IMG/VR virus record: IMGVR_UViG_3300029258_001468
Length of the DNA: 47,628 bases
From: a virus
Reading direction: 5' to 3' (one strand)
Shown one piece after another: positions 1 to 47,628 of the stretch. How positions within the stretch are numbered: the first letter of the stretch is position 1; each line of letters starts with the position of its first letter. The position numbers and the translations under genes were made by a program. The notes beneath the pieces were generated by a model that saw nothing but the letters and a program-made list of their open reading frames with translations, made no database searches and was not told where the DNA came from.

Positions 1-144
1 CGATGTCAAGTACCCGGAGTACAAGGCCACACGGCTCATCCCCGTCAGCGGTGATGCTGGTCCCGGAGCAAGGACCATCACCTACCGTCAGTTCGACTCT
101 GTCGGTGTTATGAAGATCATCGCCGACTACGCGACCGACCTTCC
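1..144. repeat. Terminal overlap: bases 1-144 are identical to 47485-47628 (circular closure or permutation of the contig)
   Basis: Direct string comparison of both window ends. The overlap lies inside the capsid ORF and keeps its reading frame. Confidence 0.95.
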
Positions 145-856
145 CCGTTCTGACGTAAAAGGGAAGGAGTTCACATCACCCGTCCGTTCTCTCGGAGGCA
201 GCTACGGCTACTCGATTCAGGAAATCCGGGAAGCTCAGATGGCAAACCGTCCTCTCGAACAGCGTAGAGCGAACGCGGTCCGGCGTGCAAACGAGCAAGC
301 CGTCAACCGCATCGCGTGGCTGGCAAAGACGGACGACGGAACAAACGGCGGACTGCAGGGACTGCTGTACAACCCGAACGTCACCAGTGGCGCTGCCACG
401 ACCGGCGATTGGGCGACAGCTACACCGGCAGAAATCCTCGCCGACATGAACAAAGCGGTCCGGGACATGCTCGTCCTCACAAAGGGCGTAGAGGTTCCCG
501 ACACCGTGCTGCTCCCGGTCGACCAGTTTGCGCAGATTCAGCAGACACGGCTTGACAGCGGAACAGACACGACCATCATGGAGTTTTTCCTCAAGAACAA
601 CCCCTCCATCACCTCGATAGAGTGGGTCAATGAGCTTGCAGGTCTGAACCCGAAACCGAGTGGTGCTGCTTCGGCCACCGACGTGATGGTGCTTTACAGG
701 CGCAGTCCCGACGTTCTCACCCTTGAGATACCGCAGGACTACGAGCAGTTCCCGGCACAGGAGAAAGGGCTGGCCTTCATGGTCCCGGCTCACTCCCGTA
801 TCGGTGGCGTCATTGTCTACTATCCGCTGGCAATCAGCATCGTAGAAGACATCTAA
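1..856 (+). CDS. Major capsid protein, 3' portion (HK97-fold, DUF2184-like). The gene starts at 47396 and wraps around.
   Basis: The frame is open from base 2 to TAA 854-856, in frame with GTG 47396 via the 144-bp overlap (314 aa in total). It follows the scaffold and decoration genes and is followed by a terminator hairpin. Confidence 0.85.
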   Translation, partial: DVKYPEYKATRLIPVSGDAGPGARTITYRQFDSVGVMKIIADYATDLPRSDVKGKEFTSPVRSLGGSYGYSIQEIREAQMANRPLEQRRANAVRRANEQAVNRIAWLAKTDDGTNGGLQGLLYNPNVTSGAATTGDWATATPAEILADMNKAVRDMLVLTKGVEVPDTVLLPVDQFAQIQQTRLDSGTDTTIMEFFLKNNPSITSIEWVNELAGLNPKPSGAASATDVMVLYRRSPDVLTLEIPQDYEQFPAQEKGLAFMVPAHSRIGGVIVYYPLAISIVEDI

Positions 857-883
857 GGCGTCAATTGACAAACGATAACCCGG

Positions 884-912
884 ACCCCGGTGTCAAAGCC
901 GGGGTTCTTTTT
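884..912 (+). terminator. Rho-independent terminator after the capsid gene
   Basis: 7-bp stem ACCCCGG/CCGGGGT, 8-nt loop, then TCTTTTT. It lies 28 nt after the capsid stop codon. Confidence 0.7.
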
Positions 913-935
913 CACTTTCCGACAGGAGAAGAAAG

Positions 936-1340
936 ATGCTCATCAAGAACGCTGCAGCACGAGTTTTCGTAGCACCGACAGCAGCACGGGTGTTTCTTGT
1001 TCCCGGTGTGACGACCGTCGACGACAAGGTCGCGAAGGAAATCGTCAACCACAAGTGGTTCAAGGAGAACCCGAACCTGTCCGTTGTTGACGGCACCGAA
1101 GCTCCGGCTTCCGCTAAGGACGACGACAAGGACACCGGCGGTGGCGACTTCACCGAGCTTTCCAAGCTCAACGTAAAACAGGCGAAGAAGGTCATCGCCG
1201 ACATTCAGTCCATCGAACAGCTCGAAAAGATACTCGAAGTTGACGACCGTAAAGGAGTACAGGAAGCGGTCGAGGCTCGTATCGATGAGATAAACGCTGC
1301 CCTCGAAGCGCAGAAAGACGAAGAGGGAGAAGGAGAATAA
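936..1340 (+). CDS. Hypothetical head-associated protein with an acidic coiled-coil C-terminus
   Basis: ATG preceded by GGAGAAGAAAG. Sits in the head/neck module. No family recognised. Confidence 0.7.
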   Translation: MLIKNAAARVFVAPTAARVFLVPGVTTVDDKVAKEIVNHKWFKENPNLSVVDGTEAPASAKDDDKDTGGGDFTELSKLNVKQAKKVIADIQSIEQLEKILEVDDRKGVQEAVEARIDEINAALEAQKDEEGEGE

Positions 1341-1342
1341 AC

Positions 1343-4139: not shown

Positions 4140-4197
4140 CCCGATTGACAAGTGCAAATCGGATAGCCAATTGACAAACACAAATAAGGAGTGAGAC

Positions 4198-12153: not shown

Positions 12154-14358
12154 ATGGCCTCATATACAGTAGCACAAGCTGGCGATTGGGACGACACGAA
12201 CACGTGGAACGAGTCCGGTACGCCGGGTTCGGGCGACGACGTCACAATTGACAACTACAAAGTAACGATGACACAGGCGGAGACGGCTGGTTCAGTCGTC
12301 ATTGACGGAGGAGAACTTGACCAAGACGGGTACAAGTTGACACTCGACAACGACGTAGCAGACGCTGACCTGTTCATCATCGCAAACGTGCAGGACATCT
12401 ACACACCGAACGGTGGCGAAGTCGAGCTTACCGGTTCCGGTAACGTGGAAAATCCGCACTGGTCCAACGACATCGACAAACTGACGATGGCTGCGAACGG
12501 AAAAACGAACGACGTGACAGGTGACTGCCGGGTGAGCGTCCTCGTCGTCGGCACCGGGACGGTTGACATCCACAGTGGTGTGTCGTTGCAGCCGGGGCAG
12601 GGAGCTTCCGGTGGAACGCAAATCTACTACGACTCCGGGTGCACGTACACCGGTTGGGGGGAGATATTCTTCTACACGCAGAGCACCGGGACGCAGACCG
12701 TCGCCGGTTTTGACGCTGGTGGCATCGGTATCAGCTGGTTCGGCTCAGGCTCCGGCAGCTTTCAGATACTAGGCAACTTCGAGACTACAGGCGGATGCTG
12801 GATGTGGCACTACGGGGATTTCGACACCAACGGATACAACACGGAATCGGACGGACTCTACCTCAACGACTGCACGTTCCGGTGCCGAACCGGGACGCAC
12901 GACCACGGCTCCGTCACAACGTTCTCGGCTGGTGTCGATTTCGAACTTGACAGCTGCACTTTCAAGTGTGCAGGTACCTTTGACCTCGGCTCCGGCTCGA
13001 ACATCGACAACACCAAGGAAACCGGCTCGTGGTCGACTCTCATCTTTGACGGCTCCGGCGCTCAGTCGTTCGACCCACACGGCGACGACATCGGCCACAT
13101 CGAGATTGACAAGAGCGGAGGCACGTTGACGATGCAGGACCAGCTCGGCTGCGTCGACTTTACAAACACAGCTGGAACGTTCGACTCCGGCTCTAACTAC
13201 GCAATAGACATCGACGGCGACTTCTCACTTGACGGCGGTACTGTCGATTTTAACACTTCTACTCTGACAATAGCAGGTGGATACGACCGGGCGAGCGGAA
13301 CGACGTTGACGGCAGACGGCTCGCTCACTTTTGACGGCACCTCCGGCACGCACACCATCAACTCCGGCACCGGTCTTTTCCCGAACTTCACGGTCAACGG
13401 CACCGGTGGAACGTGGGAGTGGTCCGGGACAGGAGGCTTCGACGAAGTGACGGTGACGAATGGGACTCTCGACCTCGTTGGTTCGAGCAGCACTTCGTGG
13501 ACCTCCCTAACCGTCAACGCAAACGGCATCTTCCGAGGAGGCTCCGCTACACTGGAGGTCTACGGCAGTGTCGTCATCAACTCGTCTTCAAACACAGACT
13601 TCGAGACCAGCACCGTCTTGATGGCTGGTTCTTCGACGTCAATCACGAACACCGCGTCCGGGAACGCGTTTTACAACCTCGAAATCAACTCCAGTGGAAC
13701 ACCGAGCACGACCGGCGCGTTCTACGTAGACAACGAGTTCTTAATCACAGCAGGTACGTTCGACCTGAACGGCCACAACATGACGACCCACGACTTCACG
13801 CTCGACGGAGGGACGTTTGACGCTTCTGATGGAACACCGAGTATCAACATATCCGGGGACGTAGACGTCGCCGGTGCAGCGACCATCAACGAAGGCTCTT
13901 CGAAGTTCGTTCTTGACGGGGACACTGCGCAGTCTATCGATTGGGGCGACGAGGACATAAACGACCTCGACGTGACCAACGTTGTCGGAACCGTGAGCTT
14001 CACATCCCGGCTCGACGTGAAGGGAACGTTCGCTCCCGGAAACGGCGCTGCTACAGTCCGCTGCGAATTCGCAACATCCGGTTCGCACTACTGGAACGCG
14101 ATTGACACCTCCGGCGCTAGCGGAACTGGAAGCGTTGAGATTGACAGCATAGGAGGCGTCAGCCAGTTCGCGCTCACGATAGGAAGCAATCAAACCGTCA
14201 CATCGGTTGACGTTTCACAAAGTAACTTGACAGGGTTCACAATCGACGCTACCGACCCGACGAATATCGACAGCGGTAGCAACTCGTCGAATTGGCTCTT
14301 TAGCGGTGGAGACAGTGTTCCTCAGAAAATCTATAACTACAGAAGGAGACGTGTATGA
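12154..14358 (+). CDS. Tail fibre/spike protein with beta-helix-like degenerate G/T/D-rich repeats
   Basis: 734 aa. Recurrent ...GGT.D..G....TL.G... segments. Sits in the tail-fibre block. Confidence 0.65.
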   Translation: MASYTVAQAGDWDDTNTWNESGTPGSGDDVTIDNYKVTMTQAETAGSVVIDGGELDQDGYKLTLDNDVADADLFIIANVQDIYTPNGGEVELTGSGNVENPHWSNDIDKLTMAANGKTNDVTGDCRVSVLVVGTGTVDIHSGVSLQPGQGASGGTQIYYDSGCTYTGWGEIFFYTQSTGTQTVAGFDAGGIGISWFGSGSGSFQILGNFETTGGCWMWHYGDFDTNGYNTESDGLYLNDCTFRCRTGTHDHGSVTTFSAGVDFELDSCTFKCAGTFDLGSGSNIDNTKETGSWSTLIFDGSGAQSFDPHGDDIGHIEIDKSGGTLTMQDQLGCVDFTNTAGTFDSGSNYAIDIDGDFSLDGGTVDFNTSTLTIAGGYDRASGTTLTADGSLTFDGTSGTHTINSGTGLFPNFTVNGTGGTWEWSGTGGFDEVTVTNGTLDLVGSSSTSWTSLTVNANGIFRGGSATLEVYGSVVINSSSNTDFETSTVLMAGSSTSITNTASGNAFYNLEINSSGTPSTTGAFYVDNEFLITAGTFDLNGHNMTTHDFTLDGGTFDASDGTPSINISGDVDVAGAATINEGSSKFVLDGDTAQSIDWGDEDINDLDVTNVVGTVSFTSRLDVKGTFAPGNGAATVRCEFATSGSHYWNAIDTSGASGTGSVEIDSIGGVSQFALTIGSNQTVTSVDVSQSNLTGFTIDATDPTNIDSGSNSSNWLFSGGDSVPQKIYNYRRRRV

Positions 14359-16630: not shown

Positions 16631-16642
16631 GGAGATTGACAG

Positions 16643-17179
16643 ATGGCACAAAACCTCAAAGCGATGGTCGGCATCCTCGTTTCTCAGGTGCAGGAGCTAG
16701 AAAACCAGCTCTCCCTGTTGGACACCAAGCGCCGAATAAACACCGCGCTAGGCGACCAGCTTGACACGGTCGGCGAGATAGCCGGGGAGCCTCGTCTCGG
16801 TCGCGACGACGAAGAGTACCGCTCCGCTATCAAGTCGCGTTTACTGGTCAACCAAGGAAGCGGAACTCCGGAAGAGCTGCTCACCGCGTTGCAGTTTCTC
16901 ACACAGGCGACGAACATGAGCGTCGTCGAGGTGCAACCGGCGACCGTCATCCTCTACACGGACGGAACGGAAATAGCGCCGACGCTGACCACCGACATGC
17001 TCAAGCTTAAACCTGCAGGCGTCAATTTACAGATACAAATCATAGCTGGTGGTATACCGTTCTCGTTCGACGACGAGGGAGGGGTACCGCGTCCACCGGA
17101 AGGTAAGAGCTTCTCCGAGTACAACTACACGGAGGGTGGAGCGCCGGTCGGAGGTCAGTTTACAGAGGCACTTCTATAA
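16643..17179 (+). CDS. Baseplate/tail-fibre-associated protein (DUF2612 / gpI-like candidate)
   Basis: GGGAG RBS. The LD.VGEI.GE.R motif resembles DUF2612 proteins. Confidence 0.45.
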   Translation: MAQNLKAMVGILVSQVQELENQLSLLDTKRRINTALGDQLDTVGEIAGEPRLGRDDEEYRSAIKSRLLVNQGSGTPEELLTALQFLTQATNMSVVEVQPATVILYTDGTEIAPTLTTDMLKLKPAGVNLQIQIIAGGIPFSFDDEGGVPRPPEGKSFSEYNYTEGGAPVGGQFTEALL

Positions 17180-18309: not shown

Positions 18310-18579
18310 ATGACTGCACTCCAGTTTCTCAACCAGCCGATCGTGGTAGCGTTTCTCACTGCCGGTGTTGTGCTGTTGGGCTACTGGTTGAACGCTAAGA
18401 AAGACAGCAACCAACGAGTAGGAAACAAGGTAGACAAGGCCAGCTGCTCAGCCTTCCGGAAGAGGATAGGCAAGGAGGTGGAAGACGTACAGCACGAAAC
18501 CGAAGTGGTTAAAAAGGCGCTGGTGTTCATCGTCGCGAAAATGGACGGCGACCCACGTGAACTTGGACTTATTGATTGA
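18310..18579 (+). CDS. Holin candidate (single N-terminal TM helix)
   Basis: TM segment PIVVAFLTAGVVLLGYWL followed by a charged tail. Lies immediately upstream of the lipase and peptidase genes. Confidence 0.45.
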   Translation: MTALQFLNQPIVVAFLTAGVVLLGYWLNAKKDSNQRVGNKVDKASCSAFRKRIGKEVEDVQHETEVVKKALVFIVAKMDGDPRELGLID

Positions 18580-18593
18580 CAAAGGAGAAGACC

Positions 18594-19892: not shown

Positions 19893-20489
19893 ATGCTGAC
19901 TACAAACTTGACAGGTGCAATACGCACCGCACTACAGGACGAATACGAGGTTCAGGTCGCCCGTCGCCGAGGGATGCGCAAGTGGTCGCTTCCGACGAAG
20001 TGGCGTCCGGAGGTCGGTCGTCTTGCCGATTTTCTGATGGACCGGGGAGTCAACAGTGTATCTGCAGCACGGGAGTTCATCGCTGCTCAGTTTAACTTCT
20101 TGTCGAAGAGGTTCTGCACCGACGTGTTCAAGCTCACCTATCCACCACTGCCGGTCTTTTACACCTACCACTCCCGGCTACGACACAACAAGACCCAGCT
20201 GGTACGCGAGTCCTTCAAATTGACAACCGACAATGAGAAGATAAAGAAGACGCTGGTCTCGGAGCTGGCGTCAATCGCTGGTACCGAGCTTGACAGGCCT
20301 CGCCTCCAGTTCGCGCTTTGCAGTGGGGTGATAGGGTACCACACACTGGCCTACCTCTCTCTTTCGGACAAGATAACGAGCGACCTAGCAGGTGCCGTCA
20401 TCCGTCTGCACACAGCAGTCGACGGGGACGCGGAGTCGAAGTTCATCGACGCGCTGCGAGTCGTCAAAAAGATAGGAGCAGGAGAATGA
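19893..20489 (+). CDS. Hypothetical protein (first gene after the 200-bp structured intergenic region)
   Basis: AAGGAGGG RBS, 198 aa, ATGA-coupled downstream. Confidence 0.7.
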   Translation: MLTTNLTGAIRTALQDEYEVQVARRRGMRKWSLPTKWRPEVGRLADFLMDRGVNSVSAAREFIAAQFNFLSKRFCTDVFKLTYPPLPVFYTYHSRLRHNKTQLVRESFKLTTDNEKIKKTLVSELASIAGTELDRPRLQFALCSGVIGYHTLAYLSLSDKITSDLAGAVIRLHTAVDGDAESKFIDALRVVKKIGAGE

Positions 20490-30981: not shown

Positions 30982-31223
30982 CGGTTGTCAAGCAATACAA
31001 CCCGGTATGTTACCGGAGGGCTAGACGTGTTCCAGTTGTATCCGTCACTCAACGCCGACCAGCAGCAGCTCCCGGTAAACGACCGGCGCTAGTTGCAGCT
31101 GTAAAGCGAGTGCTGGAGAAGCTGGAACGCATCGAGCCTTTCTCCGTGCAGTGGGGTATGCTGTGCGGTATGGGGTTCGCAAGCGAACAACGACTACAGG
31201 AGTTCCTCGCATGCCACGAGTAG
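30978..31223 (+). CDS. Hypothetical small protein (TTG start)
   Basis: TTG overlaps the upstream TGA and follows GAAGAAGGA. The longer ORF from 30897 was rejected. Confidence 0.4.
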   Translation: MTVVKQYNPVCYRRARRVPVVSVTQRRPAAAPGKRPALVAAVKRVLEKLERIEPFSVQWGMLCGMGFASEQRLQEFLACHE

Positions 31224-32215
31224 ACCGTGACTACGTGTTCGAGCAGCTAGGCGATTTCCACCGTCGCAAGGAGTGGTACAACTTCCGGTGTCCGTATCAC
31301 CGAGGCGAGTCACTCAACTTCGGGGTGTCCTTCCGGGCTGGCCGGTTCCACTGCTTCTCATGTGGTGCTGCCGGTCCGCTGCCGGTCCTCCTATATGACC
31401 TGAGGGAAGGCACGGCGACGGGCTTCGGAGGCGGTCGTGGCCTCCTAGGGCCTAAGGCCCGACCCCGGCCCGGCGAGGCCAAGGAAGATACCTCGTCTGC
31501 GCTTTCTAAGCGCTTAAATTCGGGTCGGTCCGACCCCGGCCCGGAGGTGGACACCGACAGGTGGTTCCGGGACCGCTTCGAGGCCCTCCCGGAGGTGGCT
31601 GGCACGGCGCTTGCTGGTAAGATGGCGCTGGAGTACCTGCGCCGACGCGGAATACAGCTCGACCGGCTGGACGTTGGTCTACTTGACGGATACGAAGGTC
31701 GGGTGGTCTTCCCATTCTACGACCGAGGCAAGGTCGTCTTCTTTCAGGGCCGGTCATTCGTGCCGTCGCCGTTGAAGACCATCAACCCCGATGTTGAGGA
31801 CGGCTGGTATCCGAAAACCGACGTGCTCTTCCGACTTGAGTGTCTGAACGGTGGAACGGTCGTATTGACAGAGGGGATATTCGACGCCTTGAAGACGGAA
31901 CAGGCGATTGGAAGGTCACATCGAGCGAGTTGCCTACTTGGAAAGACCATCAGCCAAAGACAGATTCGGCTGCTCCGGTCTGCTGGCGTCGAGTGGATTA
32001 CCGTGTTCTTGGACGGTGACGCCAACAGGGAAGCAGCCGATCTCGCTATCAAGCTTTACAAGCACAAATTCGGCGTGCGCTTAGTCCAGTACCCTAACCA
32101 CATGCACGAAGCGGACCCCGGCTCGCTGGACGCCGGGACGATTCGCTCTCTTCTCCTTTCTGCTCGTCCTGTTGGTCCAACAACAGAGCTTGAGCTTGCT
32201 CTTTTATCCGCCTAA
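31211..32215 (+). CDS. DnaG-like primase (CHC2 zinc finger + TOPRIM) with a low-complexity insert encoded by repeat copy B
   Basis: CPYH...CFSCG zinc finger. TOPRIM motifs VLTEGIFDA and FLDGDANREAA. The linker GFGGGRGLLGPKARPRPGEAKEDTSSALSKRLNSGRSDPGPE is encoded by 31409-31545. Confidence 0.85.
   Translation: MPRVDRDYVFEQLGDFHRRKEWYNFRCPYHRGESLNFGVSFRAGRFHCFSCGAAGPLPVLLYDLREGTATGFGGGRGLLGPKARPRPGEAKEDTSSALSKRLNSGRSDPGPEVDTDRWFRDRFEALPEVAGTALAGKMALEYLRRRGIQLDRLDVGLLDGYEGRVVFPFYDRGKVVFFQGRSFVPSPLKTINPDVEDGWYPKTDVLFRLECLNGGTVVLTEGIFDALKTEQAIGRSHRASCLLGKTISQRQIRLLRSAGVEWITVFLDGDANREAADLAIKLYKHKFGVRLVQYPNHMHEADPGSLDAGTIRSLLLSARPVGPTTELELALLSA
31409..31545 (+). repeat. GC-rich structured repeat, copy B, in frame inside the primase gene
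   Basis: Shares GGGCCTAAGGCC, GGAAGATACCTCGTCTGCGCT and TCTAAGCGCTTAAATT with copies A and C. Internal 14-bp direct repeat CGACCCCGGCCCGG at 31460 and 31531. Confidence 0.7.
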
Positions 32216-32756
32216 TCTCCCTGCTGATAGTCGCTTTGCTGATGTCAAGTGACCGGGCTATCAGACTGTCCGGTATCGAGTCCGGGTTCAGGCTCATGAC
32301 GAGCTTGCCGGAGGCGCGTGCCTCCAGTTTGTGTTGCCGGACCGCCATTGACATCTGTAAAGTCTTATCGCTAGGAGCGAGCTTCTCCCGGAGTACGCGC
32401 TTGCCGAGGGCCGACAGGCGACGCTCCAGTGCTTGGATAAAGACGCGTGCCTCGACCTCGTCTTCGTGGCTGTCAATCGGAGCTTCCACGTTGTCTGAGG
32501 AAGAAGCAAACCGGGCGTGGTACCGCATCGCTTCGCGCTGCGCGTCTACGATTCTGTTGTACGCCGTCCTGCTGATGAGGCGGATGACGTCTTGCGTGCT
32601 CTTGTGTTTGTACCTGTCAATTGCGTGTAGGGCTGCGACGAGTCCTTCCTGCATGAAGTCGTGCGCTTGCAGCTGGTCGACCGCGTGCCGGTAGGCGACG
32701 ATGCGGACGCCGTTGTAAATCTTCCGGATGAACCAGCTCTTGTCAAGCATCTTCAT
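32094..32756 (-). CDS. Sigma-70 family (ECF-like) sigma factor
   Basis: Region 2 DFMQEGLVAALHAIDRY...RTAYNRIVD. Region 4 HTH LIARSLDISKATISREIRRIKEQ. Confidence 0.75.
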   Translation of the reverse strand: MKMLDKSWFIRKIYNGVRIVAYRHAVDQLQAHDFMQEGLVAALHAIDRYKHKSTQDVIRLISRTAYNRIVDAQREAMRYHARFASSSDNVEAPIDSHEDEVEARVFIQALERRLSALGKRVLREKLAPSDKTLQMSMAVRQHKLEARASGKLVMSLNPDSIPDSLIARSLDISKATISREIRRIKEQAQALLLDQQDEQKGEESESSRRPASRGPLRACG

Positions 32757-34698: not shown

Positions 34699-34713
34699 GA
34701 GGGTGGTTGGTGG

Positions 34714-35250: not shown

Positions 35251-35281
35251 CTTCTTCTCCTTTGTCAATGATGGCAGAGGT

Positions 35282-36896: not shown

Positions 36897-36913
36897 TTGA
36901 CAAAGGAGAATAG

Positions 36914-37139: not shown

Positions 37140-37781
37140 ATGGCACCAACAACCTACAACCCCGGTGACGCAGTATCCGTTGACGGCGAAGGAGGGTACA
37201 CCGTTCTCAAGGTAATGAAGTCCTCTCTTAAAGTCGAAAAAGACGGCAACACCAGCATCAAGCCGATGGCTCTGTGCGAACTTGACGGAGGAGAAGCACC
37301 GGCAGAGAAACCGGCGTCTCGGAAGCGTTCGAGTAAAAAAGCAGCTCCCAAGGGAACCGGCGTAAAGGCGAAGCCACGCAGGAACCCGGTTGAGGACGCA
37401 GAGAATCCGCCTACCAAGTCACGCAAGCGGAAAGCTCCGGCAGAAAAACCGGCAGCAAGCAAGAAGTCGTACGAAAAGCGCGACAGCTCGAAGGACGGCG
37501 AGGTAGTTGACAAAGGAGAGTCGACTAAAGGAACCGCCTCGAAGCCGAAAGCAGCTCGTCCGACCAAGAAATCCGAAGCGGACCCGGTAGGCAAGGTGCT
37601 GTGGGACTGCGACACACCGACCAAGGTCGTGAACGCTGTCAAGGGACACAAGGCGTACAAGTTCGTCAACACCGACAGCTTCAAGAAGACCGTCGCTCAG
37701 AAAAACGACCTGCAGTTCGGTCTTTTCCGGATGCGAATGGGGAACCTGCTTCGGGGAGCTATCAACAGAGCTTCGAAGTAA
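37140..37781 (+). CDS. Lys/Pro/Ala-rich basic protein (possible DNA-binding / histone-H1-like) with globular ends
   Basis: GGAGGAAG RBS. About 110 aa of KKAAPK/KPRR/SKKS low-complexity sequence. Confidence 0.65.
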   Translation: MAPTTYNPGDAVSVDGEGGYTVLKVMKSSLKVEKDGNTSIKPMALCELDGGEAPAEKPASRKRSSKKAAPKGTGVKAKPRRNPVEDAENPPTKSRKRKAPAEKPAASKKSYEKRDSSKDGEVVDKGESTKGTASKPKAARPTKKSEADPVGKVLWDCDTPTKVVNAVKGHKAYKFVNTDSFKKTVAQKNDLQFGLFRMRMGNLLRGAINRASK

Positions 37782-38288: not shown

Positions 38289-38524
38289 AGCACGTAGTTG
38301 GCATCCTCGCGATGCTGGTACTGGTGGTGTGGCTGGTGGGCTGTCCGGTCATCACGTTTTTCATGGTGTTGGAGGTCGGGAGCTTGAGCGAGGCGTTTAT
38401 CGTGACGTGGAAACATCCGGTGGCGTGGCTAGGAGTCAACGGGGTCGCGTTCATAGCTGGAGCGGTTATGGCGGTTTGGTGCCTGTCAATTGACGAACGC
38501 AGGAGGCGCTACTATGGCGGATAG
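38285..38524 (+). CDS. Membrane protein (2-3 TM helices)
   Basis: ATGA coupling, strongly hydrophobic over 79 aa. Confidence 0.6.
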   Translation: MKHVVGILAMLVLVVWLVGCPVITFFMVLEVGSLSEAFIVTWKHPVAWLGVNGVAFIAGAVMAVWCLSIDERRRRYYGG

Positions 38525-38720: not shown

Positions 38721-38738
38721 TTGACAAAGGAGAAGAAC

Positions 38739-39131: not shown

Positions 39132-39710
39132 ATGGCAGGACGGCAAAAAAGGCGTGCCCGGCTGGAAGCAGAAAAGCGACTAGCTGAGGCGCAAAAGCGG
39201 ATTGCCGACCGAAATGCTACCGACCGAGAAGGTAGCCAGCCGACCAAGAAAGACAAGGCGATAGAGGTCGAAGTTGAGAGAATCCGTGAAGCCATCAACC
39301 AACCACACGGCGATATCACCGCAATCTGGCGCTCCGAATTTGTGGCTGTCAAGAACCCGGAGAAGCTACCGGACGAGGTGTACGTCGCTGCTGCGCTCCG
39401 CTCTTTTGGCAACGTTTCTATCATGGCACGTCTTCTCGGCTGCTACCACAAGCACATTTACAACCGCATCAACACCAGCGCTGCTCTCGCCGAGGTCATG
39501 GCCGAAGCACGCAACATGTTCATCGACCTCGCAGAAGCTCGTCTTATCGAGTCGGTGGCGAACTCCGACGATTGGGCCGTCAAGTTTACACTTGAGACCC
39601 TCGGCAAGGGACGAGGCTACACGAAAGAACACATACCGGAAGACCACAAAGGCTCTATCCTCTCCGCTATCAACCGGATGCTTGACGGCGAAACGCTCGG
39701 CGGAGCGTGA
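39132..39710 (+). CDS. Terminase small subunit candidate
   Basis: Basic coiled-coil N-terminus and an HTH-like GNVSIMARLLGCYHKHIYNRI. Lies directly upstream of the large terminase gene. Confidence 0.6.
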   Translation: MAGRQKRRARLEAEKRLAEAQKRIADRNATDREGSQPTKKDKAIEVEVERIREAINQPHGDITAIWRSEFVAVKNPEKLPDEVYVAAALRSFGNVSIMARLLGCYHKHIYNRINTSAALAEVMAEARNMFIDLAEARLIESVANSDDWAVKFTLETLGKGRGYTKEHIPEDHKGSILSAINRMLDGETLGGA

Positions 39711-39714
39711 CCGA

Positions 39715-40926
39715 ATGAAACTCCACGAGAAACAGATATGGTCGATAAGACAGGCGCGGAAGCGTCTTAACTTTTGGGAAGGAGCGGTCCGCTCCGGGAA
39801 AACGCACGCGTCTATCTTCCGTTGGATAACGTACGTCGCCGATGCTCCTCCCGGCGAGCTGCTCATGGCCGGGAAGACGACACGCTCCCTCTACCGAAAC
39901 GTCATCAAGCCGATGGGCGACCTGCTTGGTCGCGACATGAAGTACTACCCCGGTAAAGGCGAACTGGAGCTGTGGGGTCGGACCATCTTCCTCATCGGTG
40001 CAAACGACGAACGTGCAGAAGGCGTCATCCGTGGAATGACCTGCGCTGGTGCCTACCTCGACGAGATAACACTCCTGCCCGAATCCTTCTTTACAATGCT
40101 CCTGTCAAGGATGAGTGTCACCGGGGCGAAGCTCTTCGGCTCAACAAACCCGGACGCTCCGCGCCACTGGTTCAAGGTCAAGTACCTTGACAGGCGCAAT
40201 GAACTCGACATCGCCGTGTTCCGGTTCATGATAGAGGACAACCCGTCACTCGACCCGATGTACGTTTCCGCGTTGAAGATGGAGTACGTCGGTCTGTGGT
40301 ACAAACGGTACATCCTCTCTCAGTGGGTCATGGCAGAGGGAGCCATCTACGACTTCTTCGACGAGGAAGAACACTGTGTACACCGCTTCCCAAAGGCGAA
40401 GTTCCGTGTCGCTGGTGTTGACTATGGGACGAGCAACCCGACCGCATTCGGGCTTTACGGGGTGGACTTTACAAGGAAGACGAAGATTTGGAAGGAAAAG
40501 GAGTACTACTACGACCCGACGATGTCCGGGAGACAAAAGACCGACCTTGAGTTCGCACTCGACCTCCGGGACTTTGTAAAAGGAAAAAACGTCCGGCACA
40601 TCTTCGTCGACCCGTCCGCTGCGAGCTTCAAGCTCCAGTGCAAGAGGAAGGGCGTACTCGGCATCAAGGACGCAGACAACGACGTCATCGACGGAATACG
40701 CACGACGTCCAGCATGTTGAAGAACGGCTCGTACAAGATCGGTGACAACTGCAAGAAGAACATAGAGCAGAAGGGTGGCTACGTTTGGGACCCGAAGCAG
40801 CAGAAATACGGAATCGATGCGCCTGTCAAGGTGGAAGACCACACTCAAGACGAGGAACGCTACGTGCTGCATTCGATGTTCGGGACTCGGAAGTACGACC
40901 TTCTTGACAAAATGAACACGAGGTGA
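39715..40926 (+). CDS. Terminase large subunit
   Basis: Walker A GAVRSGKT, Walker B GAYLDE, and C-terminal nuclease acidic residues. The 5' ORF extension to 39274 was rejected. Confidence 0.9.
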   Translation: MKLHEKQIWSIRQARKRLNFWEGAVRSGKTHASIFRWITYVADAPPGELLMAGKTTRSLYRNVIKPMGDLLGRDMKYYPGKGELELWGRTIFLIGANDERAEGVIRGMTCAGAYLDEITLLPESFFTMLLSRMSVTGAKLFGSTNPDAPRHWFKVKYLDRRNELDIAVFRFMIEDNPSLDPMYVSALKMEYVGLWYKRYILSQWVMAEGAIYDFFDEEEHCVHRFPKAKFRVAGVDYGTSNPTAFGLYGVDFTRKTKIWKEKEYYYDPTMSGRQKTDLEFALDLRDFVKGKNVRHIFVDPSAASFKLQCKRKGVLGIKDADNDVIDGIRTTSSMLKNGSYKIGDNCKKNIEQKGGYVWDPKQQKYGIDAPVKVEDHTQDEERYVLHSMFGTRKYDLLDKMNTR

Positions 40927-42802: not shown

Positions 42803-45106
42803 GTGCCGGTCATGCGGTGTCAGCGCGGAGGGAAAAAGGGCTGGAAGGCCGGGCCTACCGGGTTTTGCTATATAGGGACCTCCGCACGTGGCAAGGCCGA
42901 AAAGCAGCTGGCTGCGATTAAGGCGTCGCAGAAGAAACGTGGCAAGATTGACAGTGAAGAAAAGAAAAAGACGCAGACGCGTCTTGACATAGACGAAGCA
43001 ACTGCTCTTTCAAAGTTAGGGTTAAGCCGGAACAGAACATCAAAGCGGAAGGTCCGCTTCAAGCGACCTCCGAAGTGGCTGCTACCGTTGGGTATTGAGA
43101 GAGAATACCAGCGCAGATTGACAGCCGTCGTCCGGGAGTGGAAAGCGGTATGTGACCGAACTCTCATGCGTCAACTTCCTGCCCTCGTTGAGGAAGGAAG
43201 GATGGAGTTCAACCTCGACGCGTTTACCGACTCGTTGGACATGCTGGTCGACAACCTCAAGCTCGAAGTCAACAAGGACAAGGAGAAATACGGGGTGGTC
43301 GCACTTGACATCGGAGAGAAGACGAAACGATGGAACGACAAGGAGTGGCGCAAGACGATGAACCAAGTCGTCGGCGTTGCTCCCTTCTCCGCTCCGGGAA
43401 CCGAGGCACTCGTCACGGACTTTACAAGTGAGAACGTTGGTCTGATAACGAAGCTCGGAGATTCCACGATGGAGGACATACGTGGCATCGTTCACCGGGG
43501 AGTCAAGCAGGGCAAACGGCACGAAGAGATAGCGAAGGAGATAACGGGCCTAGTTCCACCGGGACGCTTCAAGAAAGCGGAAACGAGAGCGAAGCTCATC
43601 GCTCGCGACCAAGTCTCCAAGCTCAACGGGCAATTGACACAGGCGAATCAGACGTCGGTCGGAGTTACCGAGTACATATGGCGCTCCTCCGACGACAGCC
43701 GGGTCCGGGCAACGCACGAGGCGAACGACGACAAGAAGTTCAAGTGGTCGAATCCTCCTGCAGCAACCGGGCATCCGGGACAGGACATCAACTGCCGGTG
43801 TTGGGCTGAGCCGGTGTTCGATGACTTAGCGGAAGCCATCAACGCCGATCCACCAGCACCTAGTGCGCCTGTCAAGGTACCAACGCCGAAGAAGACGAAG
43901 CCCGACGTAAAGACGAAAAAGCCCTTAAAGACTCAGGTGGACAAGAAGTTATCGTCCGAGTCGGTAAAGGCCACTGAGCGGTACGTATCGGACTATGAAG
44001 AGTTGAATCAACAACTCCGACTTGGGCAGGTATCCGCCAAAAACAAAAAGTTCGCTGCGTCGCTGGAGAAGGCAATTGACGAGTCAGAAGGTCTAGCGGA
44101 AGATACGGTTTTTTGGCGTGGCATGGAGTTCGAGTCAAAAAACAATCCGTTTCTCGGTAACTTTAAGAAGGGATATACGTTCAGCGATGAGGGCTTCCAG
44201 TCGATGTCGCTCGACAAAAAGGTAGCTGAGAATTTTTCGCGTGGGGGTGGGTTCGGTGACGTTGAGGTGTTAATGAAAATCAACGTACCAAAAGGGACTA
44301 AGCTAGCCAAGATACCGAGTGGGCTGGACGAGTTCATTCTACCGCCATCAAAAGGACCACAGGTGTATAAAGTCACCAAGGTCACGAAGCCGATTTCGGG
44401 TAAGCTTCTAGTGGAGGTTGACTACAGGGATATCTCGAAGGTCGCCACCAAGGGACCAAACAAAGGAGTAAAGCCGGTAGTCGCTAAACCGAAGCCACCG
44501 AAACCGGACGCATTCGACACGGCGAAGTACAACGAAATGGTGTACGATGACGAACAAAAGGAGTTTCTATTTGGAGCGAAGGAAACGCTCAAGAAGAACT
44601 CCGGGATGGACAGGCCCAAGGCGCTGCAGGACTACATCGGAAACGGCTTTACAGACGTCAATGATGAGCTTCGTGGTATGCCTGTCAATTTCGAGTACTT
44701 CAACGACTCGTTGGAGATACAGGAGGCTATTGACGATCTCGTTGACCTGTACAACCACGCTCCGAAAACACCGGAGAACCTCGTCCTTTGGAGAGGCACC
44801 GGGCTGGACCACGTGAAGAATCCTCACAAGCTCGTGGGGAAGACCATCACGGAAGACGCGTTCCTGTCAACGACGCTCAACGAACAAAAGACGAACTTCT
44901 TCATCAGTTGGGCTAAGGACCGGGACATCGAGAAGGTGGGACGAATGAAGGTATACGTTGACAAAGGAGAGGCGTTTCTCCCCGGAACAATATACGAACG
45001 GGAGGTGATATTCGAACCCGGCAGGACCCTAAGGATACTCAAGGTTGACGAGGTGAAGCCGAACGTGTTCAACATCGAAGCGCAGCTCGTAAAGGACGTA
45101 CTCTGA
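42803..45106 (+). CDS. Minor head protein (Mu F / SPP1 gp7-like) fused to two tandem ADP-ribosyltransferase (C3/VIP2-type) domains
   Basis: MuF core ...YIWRSSDDSRVRATHEANDDKKF...INCRCW. ART1 has FWRG / QSMS / LDEF. ART2 has LWRG / LSTT / YEREV (R-STT-ExE). Confidence 0.8.
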   Translation: MPVMRCQRGGKKGWKAGPTGFCYIGTSARGKAEKQLAAIKASQKKRGKIDSEEKKKTQTRLDIDEATALSKLGLSRNRTSKRKVRFKRPPKWLLPLGIEREYQRRLTAVVREWKAVCDRTLMRQLPALVEEGRMEFNLDAFTDSLDMLVDNLKLEVNKDKEKYGVVALDIGEKTKRWNDKEWRKTMNQVVGVAPFSAPGTEALVTDFTSENVGLITKLGDSTMEDIRGIVHRGVKQGKRHEEIAKEITGLVPPGRFKKAETRAKLIARDQVSKLNGQLTQANQTSVGVTEYIWRSSDDSRVRATHEANDDKKFKWSNPPAATGHPGQDINCRCWAEPVFDDLAEAINADPPAPSAPVKVPTPKKTKPDVKTKKPLKTQVDKKLSSESVKATERYVSDYEELNQQLRLGQVSAKNKKFAASLEKAIDESEGLAEDTVFWRGMEFESKNNPFLGNFKKGYTFSDEGFQSMSLDKKVAENFSRGGGFGDVEVLMKINVPKGTKLAKIPSGLDEFILPPSKGPQVYKVTKVTKPISGKLLVEVDYRDISKVATKGPNKGVKPVVAKPKPPKPDAFDTAKYNEMVYDDEQKEFLFGAKETLKKNSGMDRPKALQDYIGNGFTDVNDELRGMPVNFEYFNDSLEIQEAIDDLVDLYNHAPKTPENLVLWRGTGLDHVKNPHKLVGKTITEDAFLSTTLNEQKTNFFISWAKDRDIEKVGRMKVYVDKGEAFLPGTIYEREVIFEPGRTLRILKVDEVKPNVFNIEAQLVKDVL

Positions 45107-45300
45107 TGCAGAAAGCTAAATACGCAAGCAACCCGACGCTGGACAAAATCAGCCAGTGTATCCGGTGCAAAAACGACATCGGGAATGGTGCCTGTAAAGC
45201 GTTCCCCGACGGCATCCCGATGCAGATACTCAAAAACGAATGGGACCACCGGGAGGAGTTTCCCGGTGATAACGGTATCCAGTTCGAGGAGGAAGAATAG
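45106..45300 (+). CDS. Hypothetical small Cys-containing protein
   Basis: TGATG coupling, 64 aa. Confidence 0.6.
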   Translation: MQKAKYASNPTLDKISQCIRCKNDIGNGACKAFPDGIPMQILKNEWDHREEFPGDNGIQFEEEE

Positions 45301-46818
45301 ATGTCAAAAAGGAACGACGAGGACAAACGACGGTTTCACCGTGTCCGTGTGTTCGACCCGAAGAGGGAGCACGAGAGCACTGCAATCGTGGCCCGGTTCG
45401 CCGGGAAGATGAAGCTTCCGGAGGGAGTGCTCTCCGTGACGTACACCATCCGCTCTCCGTGGAACAACTCGACGTACGAAGCCACTCAGTCGCTTCTCTT
45501 CCCTGTCAAGTCGTATACAAGGAAGGCAGCTGAGGAGTGGGTACAGGCGAACTACTACATGGAAAAAATCGAAAGCAAGACGGTGCAGCTGACCGACATC
45601 AAGATGGACGCGCAGCCTCGGAACGACTCAGCTGGTGGCGTTGTTCGACACGACGTCGGTGAGATAGTCGGTGGGGTCGAAATGACGAGCGAGGGCTTCC
45701 TCAAGACGGACGCCGTCGTGACACGGACCGGTGTTCTCAACTACCGGAACCCGGACGGCACGCTGCGACGCGAGCTACGTCATCCCGACGATGTCTTCAA
45801 ACTTGACAGCCTTCACACCATGCGCATGATTCCCTTGACAAACGACCATCCTCGTGTTCGGCTGCTGGACAGCGAAAACGCAAAGGAGTTTCAGGTCGGA
45901 TTTACAGGTGAGAACGTTCGACCGGACGGACGTTTTGTCCGGGCACCACTGACTATAACCGACGAAGCGGTGGTCAGAGCAGTGGAGTCCGGGAAACGCG
46001 AACTCTCTCTAGGCTACCGCGTTGACCTAGTAGAGGAAGACGGAGAGTACAACGGGGAGAGGTACGACTACCGGCAGACAAACATCCGGTACAACCACCT
46101 TGCCCTCGTTGACTTTGCAAGAGCAGGAGCGGAGTCCCGAATCGAAATGGACCACGCCGATGCCGTAGAGATAGATAGCAAGAAGCAACCGCATACACCA
46201 AAACCTACAACCTCAAAAAGGAGAACAGGTATGCCTCACATTAACCTCGACAACGGTCTGTCGTACGAAGTTGACAGCGCAGAAGTGGTCGTCGCCTTCG
46301 GTCAGCTGAAAGCCGACAAAGAAGATTTACAGACGAAACTCGACGCTGCCAATGCCGAACTCGAAAAGACCAAAGCCGAACTCGACACCTCGAAGGCCCG
46401 TGTCGACGAACTCGAAAAAGTCGATGTCGCAGCCGAAGCGAAGAAACTCGCCGACGCTCGCGTAGACTGCATCACCAAGGCCAAAAAGGTCCTTGACAAA
46501 GAAGAGCTGGAGAAGCTCGACGGTGCAGCCGTAGTCGACATCAAGAAAGCCGTCATTTCGAAGCGGTTCCCGGAAGCGAAGCTCGACGACGCGACCGACG
46601 TCTACATCGACACCCGTTTCGACACCATCATCGACCTCGCTAAAGAGGACGGTGGCGACGACACCGGTGGAAACGCCGACGACGCTGCTGCACGGCAGCG
46701 GAAAGCAGTTCAGAGCCGTGGTGACTCCGGAGACAAGGGAGAACCCGACGCCGATTCAGCCCGGAAGTCGATGCAGAACTCGCGCCGGGACGCGTGGAAA
46801 AACGAAAAGAAGGACTAA
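45301..46818 (+). CDS. Prohead scaffold/protease-like protein (DUF2213-like N-domain + coiled-coil)
   Basis: The block GVLNYRNPDG...ELRHPDDVF...TNDHP...LSLGYR resembles DUF2213, followed by a long E/K/A/D coiled coil. Lies before the decoration and capsid genes. Confidence 0.65.
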   Translation: MSKRNDEDKRRFHRVRVFDPKREHESTAIVARFAGKMKLPEGVLSVTYTIRSPWNNSTYEATQSLLFPVKSYTRKAAEEWVQANYYMEKIESKTVQLTDIKMDAQPRNDSAGGVVRHDVGEIVGGVEMTSEGFLKTDAVVTRTGVLNYRNPDGTLRRELRHPDDVFKLDSLHTMRMIPLTNDHPRVRLLDSENAKEFQVGFTGENVRPDGRFVRAPLTITDEAVVRAVESGKRELSLGYRVDLVEEDGEYNGERYDYRQTNIRYNHLALVDFARAGAESRIEMDHADAVEIDSKKQPHTPKPTTSKRRTGMPHINLDNGLSYEVDSAEVVVAFGQLKADKEDLQTKLDAANAELEKTKAELDTSKARVDELEKVDVAAEAKKLADARVDCITKAKKVLDKEELEKLDGAAVVDIKKAVISKRFPEAKLDDATDVYIDTRFDTIIDLAKEDGGDDTGGNADDAAARQRKAVQSRGDSGDKGEPDADSARKSMQNSRRDAWKNEKKD

Positions 46819-46879
46819 CCCTTCAACCTTAACGCTAGATTGACAAACGAGAATCTAACACTCTAACTAAGGAGAAACC

Positions 46880-47341
46880 ATGAGCCAGACTGCCTACAAC
46901 CGCGACTTTGCCGTTGCACAGGCCGGTATGATCGCCGACCTCGGTTTCAGCGACCGCATCGAGTCCGCGTCCGCCGAAAGCGCAGTTCCTTTCGGAAAGG
47001 TCGTCGTCGCCGGGACCAACCCGGAAACACAGGTGAAGGTTGCTGCTGCCGACACGGACACCGTGGCCGGAATTGCAGTTCTCACTCACCTTGAGCAGAC
47101 CAGCGCAGGCGTTGCGCAGTACGCCGACAAGGAAACCGTGAATGTCGCCCGTAAAGCTGTAGTATGGTGCCCTGCCACGGACCCTGTGACCATCAATACC
47201 GCCGTTTATGCCGACCTCGTAACCGTAACAGGAAACGTGACCGGTGCATCGGCGAGCAACCTTGAGATTCCGACCGCCGTCTTCCGTTCTTCGAAGGACG
47301 CGACAACCGGACTCGCAAAAGTCGAAGTCAACTTGCCGTAA
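46880..47341 (+). CDS. Head decoration / cement-like protein candidate
   Basis: AAGGAG RBS, 153 aa, lies between the scaffold and capsid genes. Confidence 0.45.
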   Translation: MSQTAYNRDFAVAQAGMIADLGFSDRIESASAESAVPFGKVVVAGTNPETQVKVAAADTDTVAGIAVLTHLEQTSAGVAQYADKETVNVARKAVVWCPATDPVTINTAVYADLVTVTGNVTGASASNLEIPTAVFRSSKDATTGLAKVEVNLP

Positions 47342-47395
47342 CGGGCTTGTTTGCATTTGTCAATTTTAACCTCAACTTCAACGAAGGAGTAAGAC

Positions 47396-47628
47396 GTGAT
47401 TCAGAAAATACAGAGCGTCAACCTCGATGCGAATGAGTCTGTCTTCTTTGCTCGCGAACTTGAACACATCAAGGCTCAGTCCTACGATGTCAAGTACCCG
47501 GAGTACAAGGCCACACGGCTCATCCCCGTCAGCGGTGATGCTGGTCCCGGAGCAAGGACCATCACCTACCGTCAGTTCGACTCTGTCGGTGTTATGAAGA
47601 TCATCGCCGACTACGCGACCGACCTTCC
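47396..47628 (+). CDS. Major capsid protein, 5' portion (continues at base 1 via the terminal overlap)
   Basis: GTG after GAAGGAG. In frame with ORF ..856 when 47485 is mapped to base 1. Confidence 0.85.
   Translation, partial: MIQKIQSVNLDANESVFFARELEHIKAQSYDVKYPEYKATRLIPVSGDAGPGARTITYRQFDSVGVMKIIADYATDL
47485..47628. repeat. Terminal overlap copy (identical to 1-144)
   Basis: Exact 144-nt identity with the window start. Confidence 0.95.

Follow-up and report, generated by a model that had tools for sequence, protein, structure and literature searches.

An excess of TTGACA across a phage genome and its tentative reading as a Chi-like signal

Gene content of the phage

The window, by which we mean the whole 47,628-bp stretch of DNA that was analysed, holds the following phage genes and global features.

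20486..21349 (+): PD-(D/E)XK nuclease
22111..22653 (+): PDDEXK_15 / RusA-like junction endonuclease
27012..28103 (+): PurZ homologue (2-aminoadenine synthesis)
31211..32215 (+): DnaG-type primase (zf-CHC2 and Toprim), a candidate reader of the motif
32094..32756 (-): sigma-70-family protein (region 2 and C-terminal helix-turn-helix), a candidate reader
37140..37781 (+): Lys/Pro/Ala-rich, histone H1-like protein, a candidate reader
39592..40926 (+): large terminase, with Terminase_6N (T4-like-virus type N-terminal domain) as sole Pfam match
1..47628 (no strand): TTGACA field, 181 copies (180 unique), 13-20 per 4 kb nearly throughout
47485..47628 (no strand): exact repeat of bases 1-144, due to assembly circularisation and not to biology, which doubles one minus-strand site

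Judging from the PurZ homologue, the phage DNA probably carries 2-aminoadenine (Z) instead of A, and the motif in the virion therefore probably reads TTGZCZ. The recombination-type enzymes found are limited to the 20486..21349 nuclease and the 22111..22653 PDDEXK_15 protein; no annealase (strand-annealing protein), RecA-like protein, Gam-like protein or known RecBCD inhibitor was detected among the phage genes. A DnaB helicase is also encoded, and a single-subunit RNA polymerase is absent from the phage genes. The Terminase_6N match is a weak hint of headful packaging, with which both motif orientations would be useful.

The TTGACA excess and its extended motif

TTGACA occurs 108 times on the plus strand and 73 times on the minus strand of the window, close to the 105-110 and 70 copies counted by hand in the initial annotation. 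Bases 1-144 recur as the final 144, which makes one minus-strand copy a duplicate. Unique sites therefore number 180 over 47,484 bp, one per 263 bp (~3.8 per kb), where a spacing of about 265 bp had been given. Base composition predicts 17.6 copies with both strands summed, and the roughly ten-fold excess claimed at first stands at 10.3-fold. TTGACA is the most frequent hexamer of the window, and the top 7-mers and 8-mers all contain it.

The excess does not follow from composition or coding. Against the 181 copies observed, dinucleotide shuffles gave 24.2±5.0 (maximum 35), codon permutation 46.9±4.5 and synonymous-codon shuffles 62.7±5.5 (maximum 78), the latter being confined to the 58 called genes, with totals that include 25 fixed intergenic copies. 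Codon-preserving shuffles thus leave the counts unreproduced and, since codon usage gives far fewer copies, the codon-artefact objection raised in the initial annotation fails. Leu-Thr dipeptides are written TTG-ACA in 45 of 104 cases, where codon usage predicts 2.7 (17x). The sense copies keep essentially to the two reading frames already proposed (44 in frame 0 and 58 in frame 1, with only 2 in frame 2), while 52 copies are antisense and 25 intergenic, these last lying in the non-coding 11% of the window at a density similar to that of coding DNA. The excess is real and selected on the DNA level rather than via protein or codon usage; the earlier claim of nucleic-acid-level selection is borne out by the shuffles and by the flank that antisense and intergenic copies share, both of which contradict a protein or codon-usage origin.

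The full motif is longer than earlier described, [A/C]TT[G/t]AC[A/g]-N4-[A/C][G/A]AA, and its extended flank is identical on sense, antisense and intergenic copies. The base preceding the hexamer is A in 77, C in 74, G in 23 and T in 6 of the 180 sites; A and C do form the majority, but at 84% 'mostly' fits better than the 'nearly always' first written. The extension reaches position 14 and ends there, with a purine at position 12, A at position 13 in 134/180 sites and AGAA at positions 11-14 in 33/180 (background 0.45% per position). The near-variants TTGACG and TTTACA are likewise enriched, with the same extension; enriched variants differ only at G3 and A6, A4 and C5 being invariant. The centres of the core and the AGAA tract lie ~9 bp apart, on one helix face. 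Spacing is more even than random placement allows, the coefficient of variation (CV) of the gaps being 0.745 against 0.99±0.07, with 0/2000 simulations that low, and it is over-regular in relatives too (0.73 in L009 and 0.67 in L024). Information content is ~0 at positions 23-30 past the hexamer, where a -10 element was sought, and in 30-40 kb a scan for the consensus promoter returned a single site where 2.7 were expected. Most copies thus have no -10 partner, as had been noticed, and they are not ordinary sigma-70 promoters.

Every motif position listed earlier as lying before a gene start is present, as are both palindromic pairs. Individual sites and gaps of interest are the following.

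860..870 (no strand): head-to-head pair GTCAATTGACA
4145..4184 (+): two sites, TTGACAAGTGCAAA and TTGACAAACACAAA, 26 bp apart in a single intergenic spacer, of the N4-CAAA type
13106..14101 (no strand): largest gap between exact copies, 996 bp, in the tail-fibre gene
16636..16649 (+): core between Shine-Dalgarno sequence and ATG, ggagaTTGACAgATG, a layout that recurs at 17187 and 40927
18576..18589 (+): TTGACAAAGGAGAA, a full extended site within the spacer at a gene start, its purine tract also serving as Shine-Dalgarno sequence
35255..35268 (-): site on the minus strand, at the beginning of a gene on that strand
36897..36910 (+): full extended site TTGACAAAGGAGAA immediately 3' of the stop codon of 36597-36896
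38484..38495 (no strand): head-to-head pair TGTCAATTGACG, one core and one TTGACG variant
38721..38734 (+): full extended site TTGACAAAGGAGAA preceding an ATG
43870..44682 (no strand): motif-free stretch of 813 bp encoding an ADP-ribosyltransferase domain

The 996-bp gap contains 10 near-variants (TTGACG or TTTACA). Orientation bias is reversed in the block of minus-strand genes at 32094-36067, with 14 sense and 4 antisense copies. In composition the motif-free stretch stands out (GC 0.499 against 0.559, tetranucleotide distance at the 99th percentile), and its acquisition is probably recent.

Conservation and patchiness among relatives

At 79% nucleotide identity, 60-86% of the TTGACA sites are conserved, above background; at 40-60% protein identity only 1-3 of 14-30 sites are shared and the density is kept at 3-5 per kb. 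The enrichment is patchy among relatives, and the motif-rich phages range in GC from 38 to 59%. One PurZ phage besides that of the window shows the enrichment, as does a phage equipped with 7-deazaguanine genes; it is missing from the PurZ phages L092 (1.6x) and L093 (1.0x). The latter two encode orthologues of the primase, sigma-like and Lys-rich proteins at 33-41% identity, and motif-rich L091 stands at the same distance from the window's phage as they do. These three proteins, put forward at first as readers, are therefore insufficient. It is the structural module that connects the motif-rich L009, L055, L024 and L007 with the window, and the trait depends neither on the replication module nor on the kind of DNA modification. 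No phage gene tracking the enrichment was found among the relatives; the motif-rich ones encode, close to the terminase genes, a protein weakly resembling a clamp. An RNA-level signal, another early suggestion, is disfavoured because antisense copies share the extended flank and strand counts are equal in L009 (40/38) and L091 (28/29).

Possible readers of the motif

The closest known phenomenon to this flood of sites, and one missing from the candidates of the initial annotation, is a Chi-type signal. We infer, as a tentative possibility, that TTGACA serves as a Chi-like signal to a host helicase-nuclease of the RecBCD/AddAB type and acts through density. Such an enzyme would enter the phage DNA at a double-strand end, read the short asymmetric word and shift from degradation to recombination, which would protect injected and rolling-circle DNA, aid the circularisation of terminally redundant DNA and support recombination-dependent replication; reading might also lower CRISPR spacer capture. 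If packaging is headful, the genome would be circularly permuted with ends anywhere, and close, even, genome-wide sites in both orientations would be favoured. The nuclease domain would act at the purine tract 4-8 nt 3' of the core, as it does for E. coli Chi.

Several features support a Chi-like signal. Chi enrichment is known in host-RecBCD-reliant phages, the coliphages LLS and P1 and the Pseudomonas phage MD8 (Bobay et al. 2013; Zheng et al. 2025, PMC12315714), where Chi ranks first among octamers in frequency just as TTGACA tops the k-mers here. E. coli RecBCD cuts best with A or G at nucleotides 4-7(8) 3' of Chi, with favoured flanks such as AAAA, AAGG and AAGGAG (PMC5041463), and TTGACA likewise joins a short asymmetric core to a purine-rich 3' flank at nucleotides 4-8. 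As with Chi in phages, related words are frequent too: the near-variants carry the same extension and fill the largest gap between exact copies. Codon usage explains neither case, and the patchiness among relatives parallels the lambdoid phages, some of which are Chi-rich and others Chi-free. That no strand-annealing protein, RecA-like protein or RecBCD inhibitor was recognised among the phage genes is a further point of likeness. A density-dependent behaviour is suggested by the even spacing, the similar coding and intergenic densities and the turnover of sites at constant density, and the motif-free foreign segment at 43870-44682 fits a gradual gain of motifs after acquisition. The GC range of Proteus, Vibrio, Klebsiella and Serratia matches that of the motif-rich phages. 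RecBCD of these genera responds to E. coli Chi (PMC5041463), and the match is in that respect favourable to a Chi-like signal.

Other features weaken it. The core, of only 6 nt, is not G-rich as known Chi sequences are, and its identity with the sigma-70 -35 consensus would be mere coincidence. The density of 3.8 per kb is ~7x that of Chi in LLS or P1 (0.53 per kb), and the sites are spread evenly on both strands, unlike Chi in cos phages, which lies on one strand and clusters near one end. The purine tract sits one nucleotide farther out than in E. coli. With its own PD-(D/E)XK nuclease and junction endonuclease, the phage may not need host recombination. This genome is, moreover, probably Z-substituted; modified bases might be rejected by a single-strand reader adapted to host DNA, whereas a double-strand major-groove reader would be blind to the 2-amino group. 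The modified bases in question are the probable 2-aminoadenine and, in one motif-rich relative, those implied by 7-deazaguanine genes.

In its architecture the motif also recalls the uptake sequences of Neisseria (DUS) and Pasteurellaceae (USS). There, too, a weaker phased flank accompanies a short core, copies in both orientations are spaced more evenly than at random, sites fall inside genes in preferred frames, and density holds as positions drift. Uptake sequences, however, belong to competent bacterial chromosomes, with 9-12 nt cores at ~1 per kb, and nothing links the TTGACA phage or its host to competence.

Rather unlikely, in our view, are dense double-strand protein-binding sites, read either by host RNA polymerase via sigma region 4, as a -35 decoy or an 'antenna' concentrating or sequestering holoenzyme on phage DNA, or by a phage protein with a role in coating or compacting the genome or in labelling it as self. 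The -35 consensus and the core are the same hexamer, and TTTACA, the -35 hexamer of the lac promoter, is tolerated; core and AGAA tract face the same side of the helix, the even, orientation-neutral coverage suits coating or a sink, and the same letters in PurZ and 7-deazaguanine-gene phages suit major-groove readout. A predicted injected ADP-ribosyltransferase-MuF fusion could moreover act on host proteins, as T4 Alt modifies RNA polymerase by ADP-ribosylation. Yet no known sigma contact accounts for the conserved bases 4-8 nt past the -35 hexamer, which the sigma decoy of the initial annotation leaves unexplained, and A4 and C5 are the invariant bases here while TTG is the best-conserved part of natural -35 elements. 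The copies also differ from sigma-70 promoters in their number (~180), their conserved downstream tract and their lack of a -10 element and of a fixed position or orientation relative to genes. A universal host sigma would require a separate explanation for patchiness among close relatives; the phage sigma-like and Lys-rich proteins occur in motif-poor L092 and L093 too, and no phage gene tracks the trait.

Start sites for the phage DnaG-type primase appear quite improbable. The template would read 5'-TTCT-N4-TGTCAA-3' with a T7-type GTC, giving an 11-nt primer pppACA...AGAA over motif positions 4-14. The complement of the motif contains (T/C)TGTC, TTGTC being a known site of T7 primase, and the distance from A4 to A14, where the extension ends, equals the ~11 nt of DnaG-type primers. 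Both strands and even spacing would suit lagging-strand priming by the encoded zf-CHC2/Toprim primase and DnaB helicase. Against this, the primase orthologues of L092 and L093 (39-41% identity) are as distant as that of motif-rich L091 and come with no excess, and what ties L009, L055, L024 and L007 to the window is the structural module, their replication genes not being known to be shared. Okazaki initiation would need sites far less dense than one every 263 bp; known primases need just three specified bases, and no enrichment of primase recognition sites is known, let alone ten-fold in a phage.

Compact promoters of the T4 late kind, used by RNA polymerase together with the sigma-like factor of the phage, are more doubtful still. 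TTGACA would take the role of a -10-type element, a discriminator of 5-6 nt would come next, and transcription would begin at the purine of position 12 or 13. Start sites standardly lie seven nucleotides past a -10 element, the distance at which the conserved A of position 13 follows the hexamer; position 12 holds a purine, and the TGACA-N5-GAA spacing matches the SP6 promoter core. The clear region 2 of the sigma-family protein and the weakly clamp-like protein of motif-rich relatives would also fit. However, the 180 sites are mostly intragenic, in both orientations and, in L009 and L091, equal on the two strands; upstream of genes they are barely enriched (25 copies in the non-coding 11%), and their positions turn over freely between relatives. 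The sigma-like gene is shared with motif-poor L092 and L093, and no single-subunit RNA polymerase is encoded.

That the motif has no function, its excess arising from a bias in codon pairs or dipeptides or from mutation or repair biased by context, is scarcely credible and already largely refuted by the synonymous shuffles (63 against 181), the 17x use of TTG-ACA, the 14-nt pattern common to antisense and intergenic copies, the conservation of sites and their regular spacing. In its favour, other hexamers are in large excess in relatives, CTCGAG in L077 and GAGCTC in L090, and these excesses are mostly single-frame and look partly codon-driven.

The TTGACA word and its flank

The hexamer TTGACA occurs 108 times on the plus strand and 73 times on the minus strand of the window, against 17.6 copies expected from base composition. 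The roughly ten-fold excess on both strands that the initial annotation had put forward is a real, strong and testable feature. Its attribution to the DNA level rather than to codon usage also held when shuffle checks were run: against the 181 copies seen, dinucleotide shuffles yield 24.2±5.0, and synonymous-codon shuffles in the 58 called genes, with the 25 intergenic copies left untouched, yield 62.7±5.5. Leu-Thr pairs are spelled TTG-ACA in 45 of 104 cases, while 2.7 would follow from codon usage. No hexamer is more frequent than TTGACA, and it is part of all the most frequent 7-mers and 8-mers. Most one-mismatch variants are at expectation, the exceptions being TTGACG (100 versus 22), TTTACA (47 versus 14), TCGACA (55 versus 22) and words overlapping the motif. 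Both in being a short non-palindromic word, an asymmetric 6-mer within the 5-8 nt range, and in its over-representation beyond codon usage and top k-mer rank, the core agrees with known Chi sites.

The density is 13-20 copies per 4 kb over nearly the whole genome and is similar in coding and non-coding DNA. Spacing is over-regular, with a gap coefficient of variation (CV) of 0.745 versus 0.99±0.07 for random placement and two gaps shorter than 25 bp against an expected 16; adjacent sites show neither a favoured short distance nor helical phasing. The largest gap between exact copies contains ten near-variants, and another coincides with a compositional outlier encoding an ADP-ribosyltransferase domain. 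Both orientations occur everywhere along the genome, at about 2:1 in favour of the gene strand and with a flip in the minus-strand block, as expected if a purine-rich motif fits more easily into the purine-rich coding strand.

Alignment of all copies extends the motif to [A/C]TT[G/t]AC[A/g]-R-V-N-G-M-R-A-A. The hexamer thus stands as the core, and the extent first given to it does not, the motif running on to position 14 counted from the first base of the core. Position 13 is A in 134 of 180 sites, and positions 11-14 read AGAA in 33 of 180, with a background of 0.45% per position. Run backwards, the search finds TTGACA (33), TTGACG (8) and TTTACA (8) ahead of N4-AGAA. Since the flank is alike on sense, antisense and intergenic copies, it is not due to coding or to ribosome-binding sites.

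Genome organization and gene content

The unique length of the contig is 47,484 bp, bases 47485-47628 being an exact 144-bp direct repeat of 1-144. This repeat is the product of assembly circularisation, and the contig therefore represents a complete, circularly assembled genome; the identical contig is present in eight assemblies. The phage carries the structural gene set of an E217/Pa193-like myovirus (terminase, portal, MuF-ADP-ribosyltransferase fusion, capsid, sheath, tube, tape measure and baseplate). The replication block encodes a family A polymerase whose N-terminus is UDG-like, a single-strand binding protein of the gp32 type, PurZ, a protein with a MazG-type domain, a DnaB helicase and a DnaG-type primase. 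A short minus-strand block encodes a sigma-70-family protein together with one DUF932 and one DUF2786 protein. The features that matter here are the following.

22872-25535: family A polymerase (PolA) with a UDG-like N-terminal domain
27012-29255: PurZ and the neighbouring MazG/dUTPase_2-domain protein
36068-36596: divergent intergenic region of 529 bp, separating the minus-strand block from the small plus-strand genes
37140-37781, plus strand: 213-aa protein with a long Lys/Pro/Ala-rich middle like histone H1 and a conserved C-terminal domain
42803-45106: head protein of the MuF type with a fused ADP-ribosyltransferase toxin domain
43870-44682: transferase-domain stretch, GC 0.499 versus 0.559 for the genome, zero TTGACA copies

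The MuF-ADP-ribosyltransferase protein is probably injected together with the DNA, and the stretch encoding its transferase domain, a compositional outlier, is probably a recent acquisition. The intergenic region, with a higher A and T content as judged by eye, contains TGTAAAGAAACG twice, at about 36327 and 36374, and may be an early control region. The coding strand of the whole window has a strong A-over-T skew (AT skew +0.11 to +0.21, and -0.24 in the minus-strand block at 32-36 kb), and cumulative GC skew shows no reversal across the window.

PurZ matches phrog_1211 (E = 5.6e-62) and is itself matched by 210 phage records. The window combines it with nucleotide-pool enzymes and a family A polymerase, the gene set of Z genomes, and no DatZ-type HD domain was recognised in it. 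Because PurZ is encoded, adenine in the phage DNA is likely to be replaced by 2-aminoadenine (Z). The TTGACA excess as a general trait of Z genomes was rejected, as the PurZ phages vB_BpsS-140, K21lambda1, L092 and L093 (the last two being loci of related phages from other records) are without it.

Among cultured phages, neither megablast nor tblastn brought up a close relative (portal at most 30% and major capsid at most 42% identical), so there is no cultured model or host to work with. The sigma-like protein had one homologue only by word-indexed search, and no tRNA genes that might hint at the host were found in the window. Two scans of genome contigs for prophages or host bins gave nothing useful; the prophages matched, from Desulfobacterales, were only 33% identical and not enriched in TTGACA.

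Conservation and patchiness among related phages

Two fragments from another metagenome, 78-79% identical to the window in DNA, keep 18 of 30 and 4 of 6 window sites exactly. Counted from the side of the fragments, 18 of 21 and 4 of 4 sites recur in the window; chance sharing would be about 25%. More distant relatives have 1-3 of 14-30 window sites at the matching position and maintain the density. Positions that turn over while density stays argue for selection on number and spread, not on particular places.

Extending the count to other phages, as the initial annotation had proposed, gave a divided answer: the excess recurs in some relatives, being common to at least a dozen contigs, and is absent from others in the same range of portal identity.

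TTGACA over base composition in phages whose portals share 35-48% identity with that of the window (L091 and L094 are parts of a single contig)
L055: 8.5-fold
L094: 8.2-fold
L009: 7.7-fold
L091: 7.2-fold
L024: 5.8-fold
L007: 4.8-fold
L063, L029, L047, L075, L089: 3.4-4.0-fold
Many other portal relatives: about 1-fold, some as low as 0.2-0.3

The GC content of the motif-rich phages spans 38-59%. TTGACA exceeds synonymous shuffles in L009, L055 and L024 as well, and over-regular spacing is found again in L009 and L024. The window, L003 and L007 have a strong flank; L091/L094, L055 and L075 have a weaker one that points the same way, and that of L009 is faint. At L009 2709-4844, QueD (PTPS), QueE (radical SAM) and FolE (GTP cyclohydrolase I), which are 7-deazaguanine genes, stand instead of PurZ.

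Eight loci (L019-L023, L040, L041, L069) hold only 0.2-0.3 of the expected TTGACA copies, suggesting that those lineages avoid the word. Ten portal relatives (L077, L090, L087, L088, L028, L032, L010, L060, L066, L069) have frequent hexamers of their own, mostly palindromes (CTCGAG, GAGCTC, TCGACG, CGGCCG, TCCGGA, GCCGGC, ACCGGT, GTTAAC), at 6-17 times composition. These were not accepted as the same phenomenon: in the eight checked, all except L087 and L066, the counts exceed those of synonymous shuffles only 1.4- to 3-fold, the words lie mostly in one reading frame in five of the eight, and gap CVs of 0.87-1.27 are not over-regular.

The initial annotation had named the primase, the sigma factor and the Lys-rich protein as candidate readers of the word, and none of them is sufficient. 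L092 and L093 (54-60 kb) have the whole PurZ replication and early module of the window with its gene order unchanged, at 60-61% identity for PurZ and 37-38% for the sigma-like protein; their structural module apparently differs. They have no TTGACA excess, whereas L091, at equal protein distances, has a 7-fold one, and the C-terminal domain of the Lys-rich protein occurs in all three. No phage gene was found to track the trait in the available fragments, only structural genes being shared with the motif-rich loci. A conserved gene pair upstream of the terminase is common in motif-rich relatives, and was rejected as the determinant: the window lacks it and some motif-poor relatives have it. 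It encodes a protein of about 100 aa ending ..R(I/V)MR and one of about 245 aa weakly matching a DNA polymerase processivity factor (phrog_947, E = 0.002).

Gene pair upstream of the terminase
L055: 5467-6964
L009: 5151-6190
L029: 518-1576
L047: 524-1778
L007: 5685-6005

Candidate explanations and their significance

The asymmetry of the word, its top k-mer rank, its enriched near-variants and its even coverage argue against a regulatory site and for a genomic word that works through its density, as do its turnover at kept density, its patchiness and its absence from DNA that was probably acquired recently. Chi sites are read by RecBCD or AddAB from one side only, attenuate the nuclease and load RecA, and are enriched in the host chromosome in co-orientation with replication; in phages their orientation goes with the DNA ends. 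Our tentative preference is that TTGACA may be a Chi-like signal for the host's helicase-nuclease, a leading candidate that still falls short of being probable. A RecBCD/AddAB-type enzyme of the host would read the word on phage DNA, and the circular permutation of a genome assumed to be headful-packaged would explain both orientations and the even spacing, the packaging mode being a guess from the only Pfam match of the terminase and from the circular assembly.

Known Chi sites offer parallels to this reading. The best documented accumulation of a word in a phage is that of Chi, which is missing from some related phages (PMC12315714). Chi activity is modulated by purines shortly 3' of the core, at the place of nuclease cutting; for E. 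coli Chi these are A or G at nucleotides 4-7(8), the best being AAAA, AAGG and AAGGAG (PMC5041463), and the purine tract at flank nucleotides 4-8 in the window is a close parallel to it as a sequence pattern only. The reading is weakened by a density about seven-fold above that of known Chi-rich phages, by the coincidence of the core with the -35 consensus, by the probable Z substitution of the DNA and by the phage's own nucleases, one of the PD-(D/E)XK type and one a PDDEXK_15 endonuclease. Chi-rich phages are without a recombination module or RecBCD inhibitor of their own; in the window, where several ORFs are without any match, searches found no annealase and no RecA-like or Gam-like protein. 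In the literature we found no report of a TTGACA excess in any phage and no Chi sequence resembling TTGACA.

Double-strand binding sites for sigma region 4 or for a phage protein are a possible but doubtful alternative. Ordinary promoters are a separate matter: a sigma-70 promoter pairs its -35 hexamer with a -10 hexamer 16-18 bp downstream, and is sited upstream of transcription units and co-oriented with them. This arrangement does not apply to the window: 156 of the 181 copies lie inside genes, 52 of them antisense, and the strands are equal in TTGACA count (1:1) in L009 and L091. Aligned copies carry about zero information at the expected -10 positions and are not paired with a -10 hexamer, and a consensus promoter scan (30-40 kb) found 1 site versus 2.7 expected, in agreement with the earlier observation that most copies of this -35 consensus lack a -10 partner; canonical promoters are not in excess.

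It is unlikely, though conceivable, that the sites are -35 decoys, in which an optimal sigma region 4 hexamer with a lineage-specific flank floods the genomes of the clade and captures or redirects the host RNA polymerase holoenzyme. Replicating phage DNA would then concentrate the holoenzyme or titrate RNA polymerase off host promoters. A related reading takes the word as a genome-wide 'self' tag for a putative phage protein.

Start sites for the primase are improbable: the motif does not co-vary with this enzyme, the primases of motif-rich L091 and motif-poor L092 and L093 being alike 39-41% identical to the window's. Compact promoters serving the phage's sigma-like factor, which the motif-poor L092 and L093 also encode, are more improbable again, and a neutral bias is scarcely credible beside the shuffle results. 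The remaining probability is kept for explanations not yet conceived.

As Chi-type enrichment the TTGACA excess would be a new variant; should it prove to be a sink for RNA polymerase or a self tag, its very kind would be new. On the Chi-like reading, if true, a phage genome reveals the helicase-nuclease control sequence of an uncultured host lineage, such sequences being experimentally established for only five species, with a handful more known by one assay or prediction. Chi accumulation would then be used by lytic-type myoviruses with modified DNA, on both strands and at a density far above that of lambdoid phages. Should the reading be wrong, what is left is more unusual: an RNA polymerase sink without promoters, or a self tag spread over the genome. 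The decoys would amount to a DNA-encoded host-takeover device that works without promoters. Either way, the excess is easily tested with oligonucleotides and is a practical marker by which these phages can be grouped and a shared host range predicted.

The word also affects annotation. Mechanical ORF calling starts genes at the TTG of TTGACA at 5427, 7050, 18576 and 38721 on the plus strand and at 35268 on the minus strand, the true ATG or GTG lying 1-20 nt downstream, and automatic annotation of the clade will mis-call gene starts at the motif in the same way.
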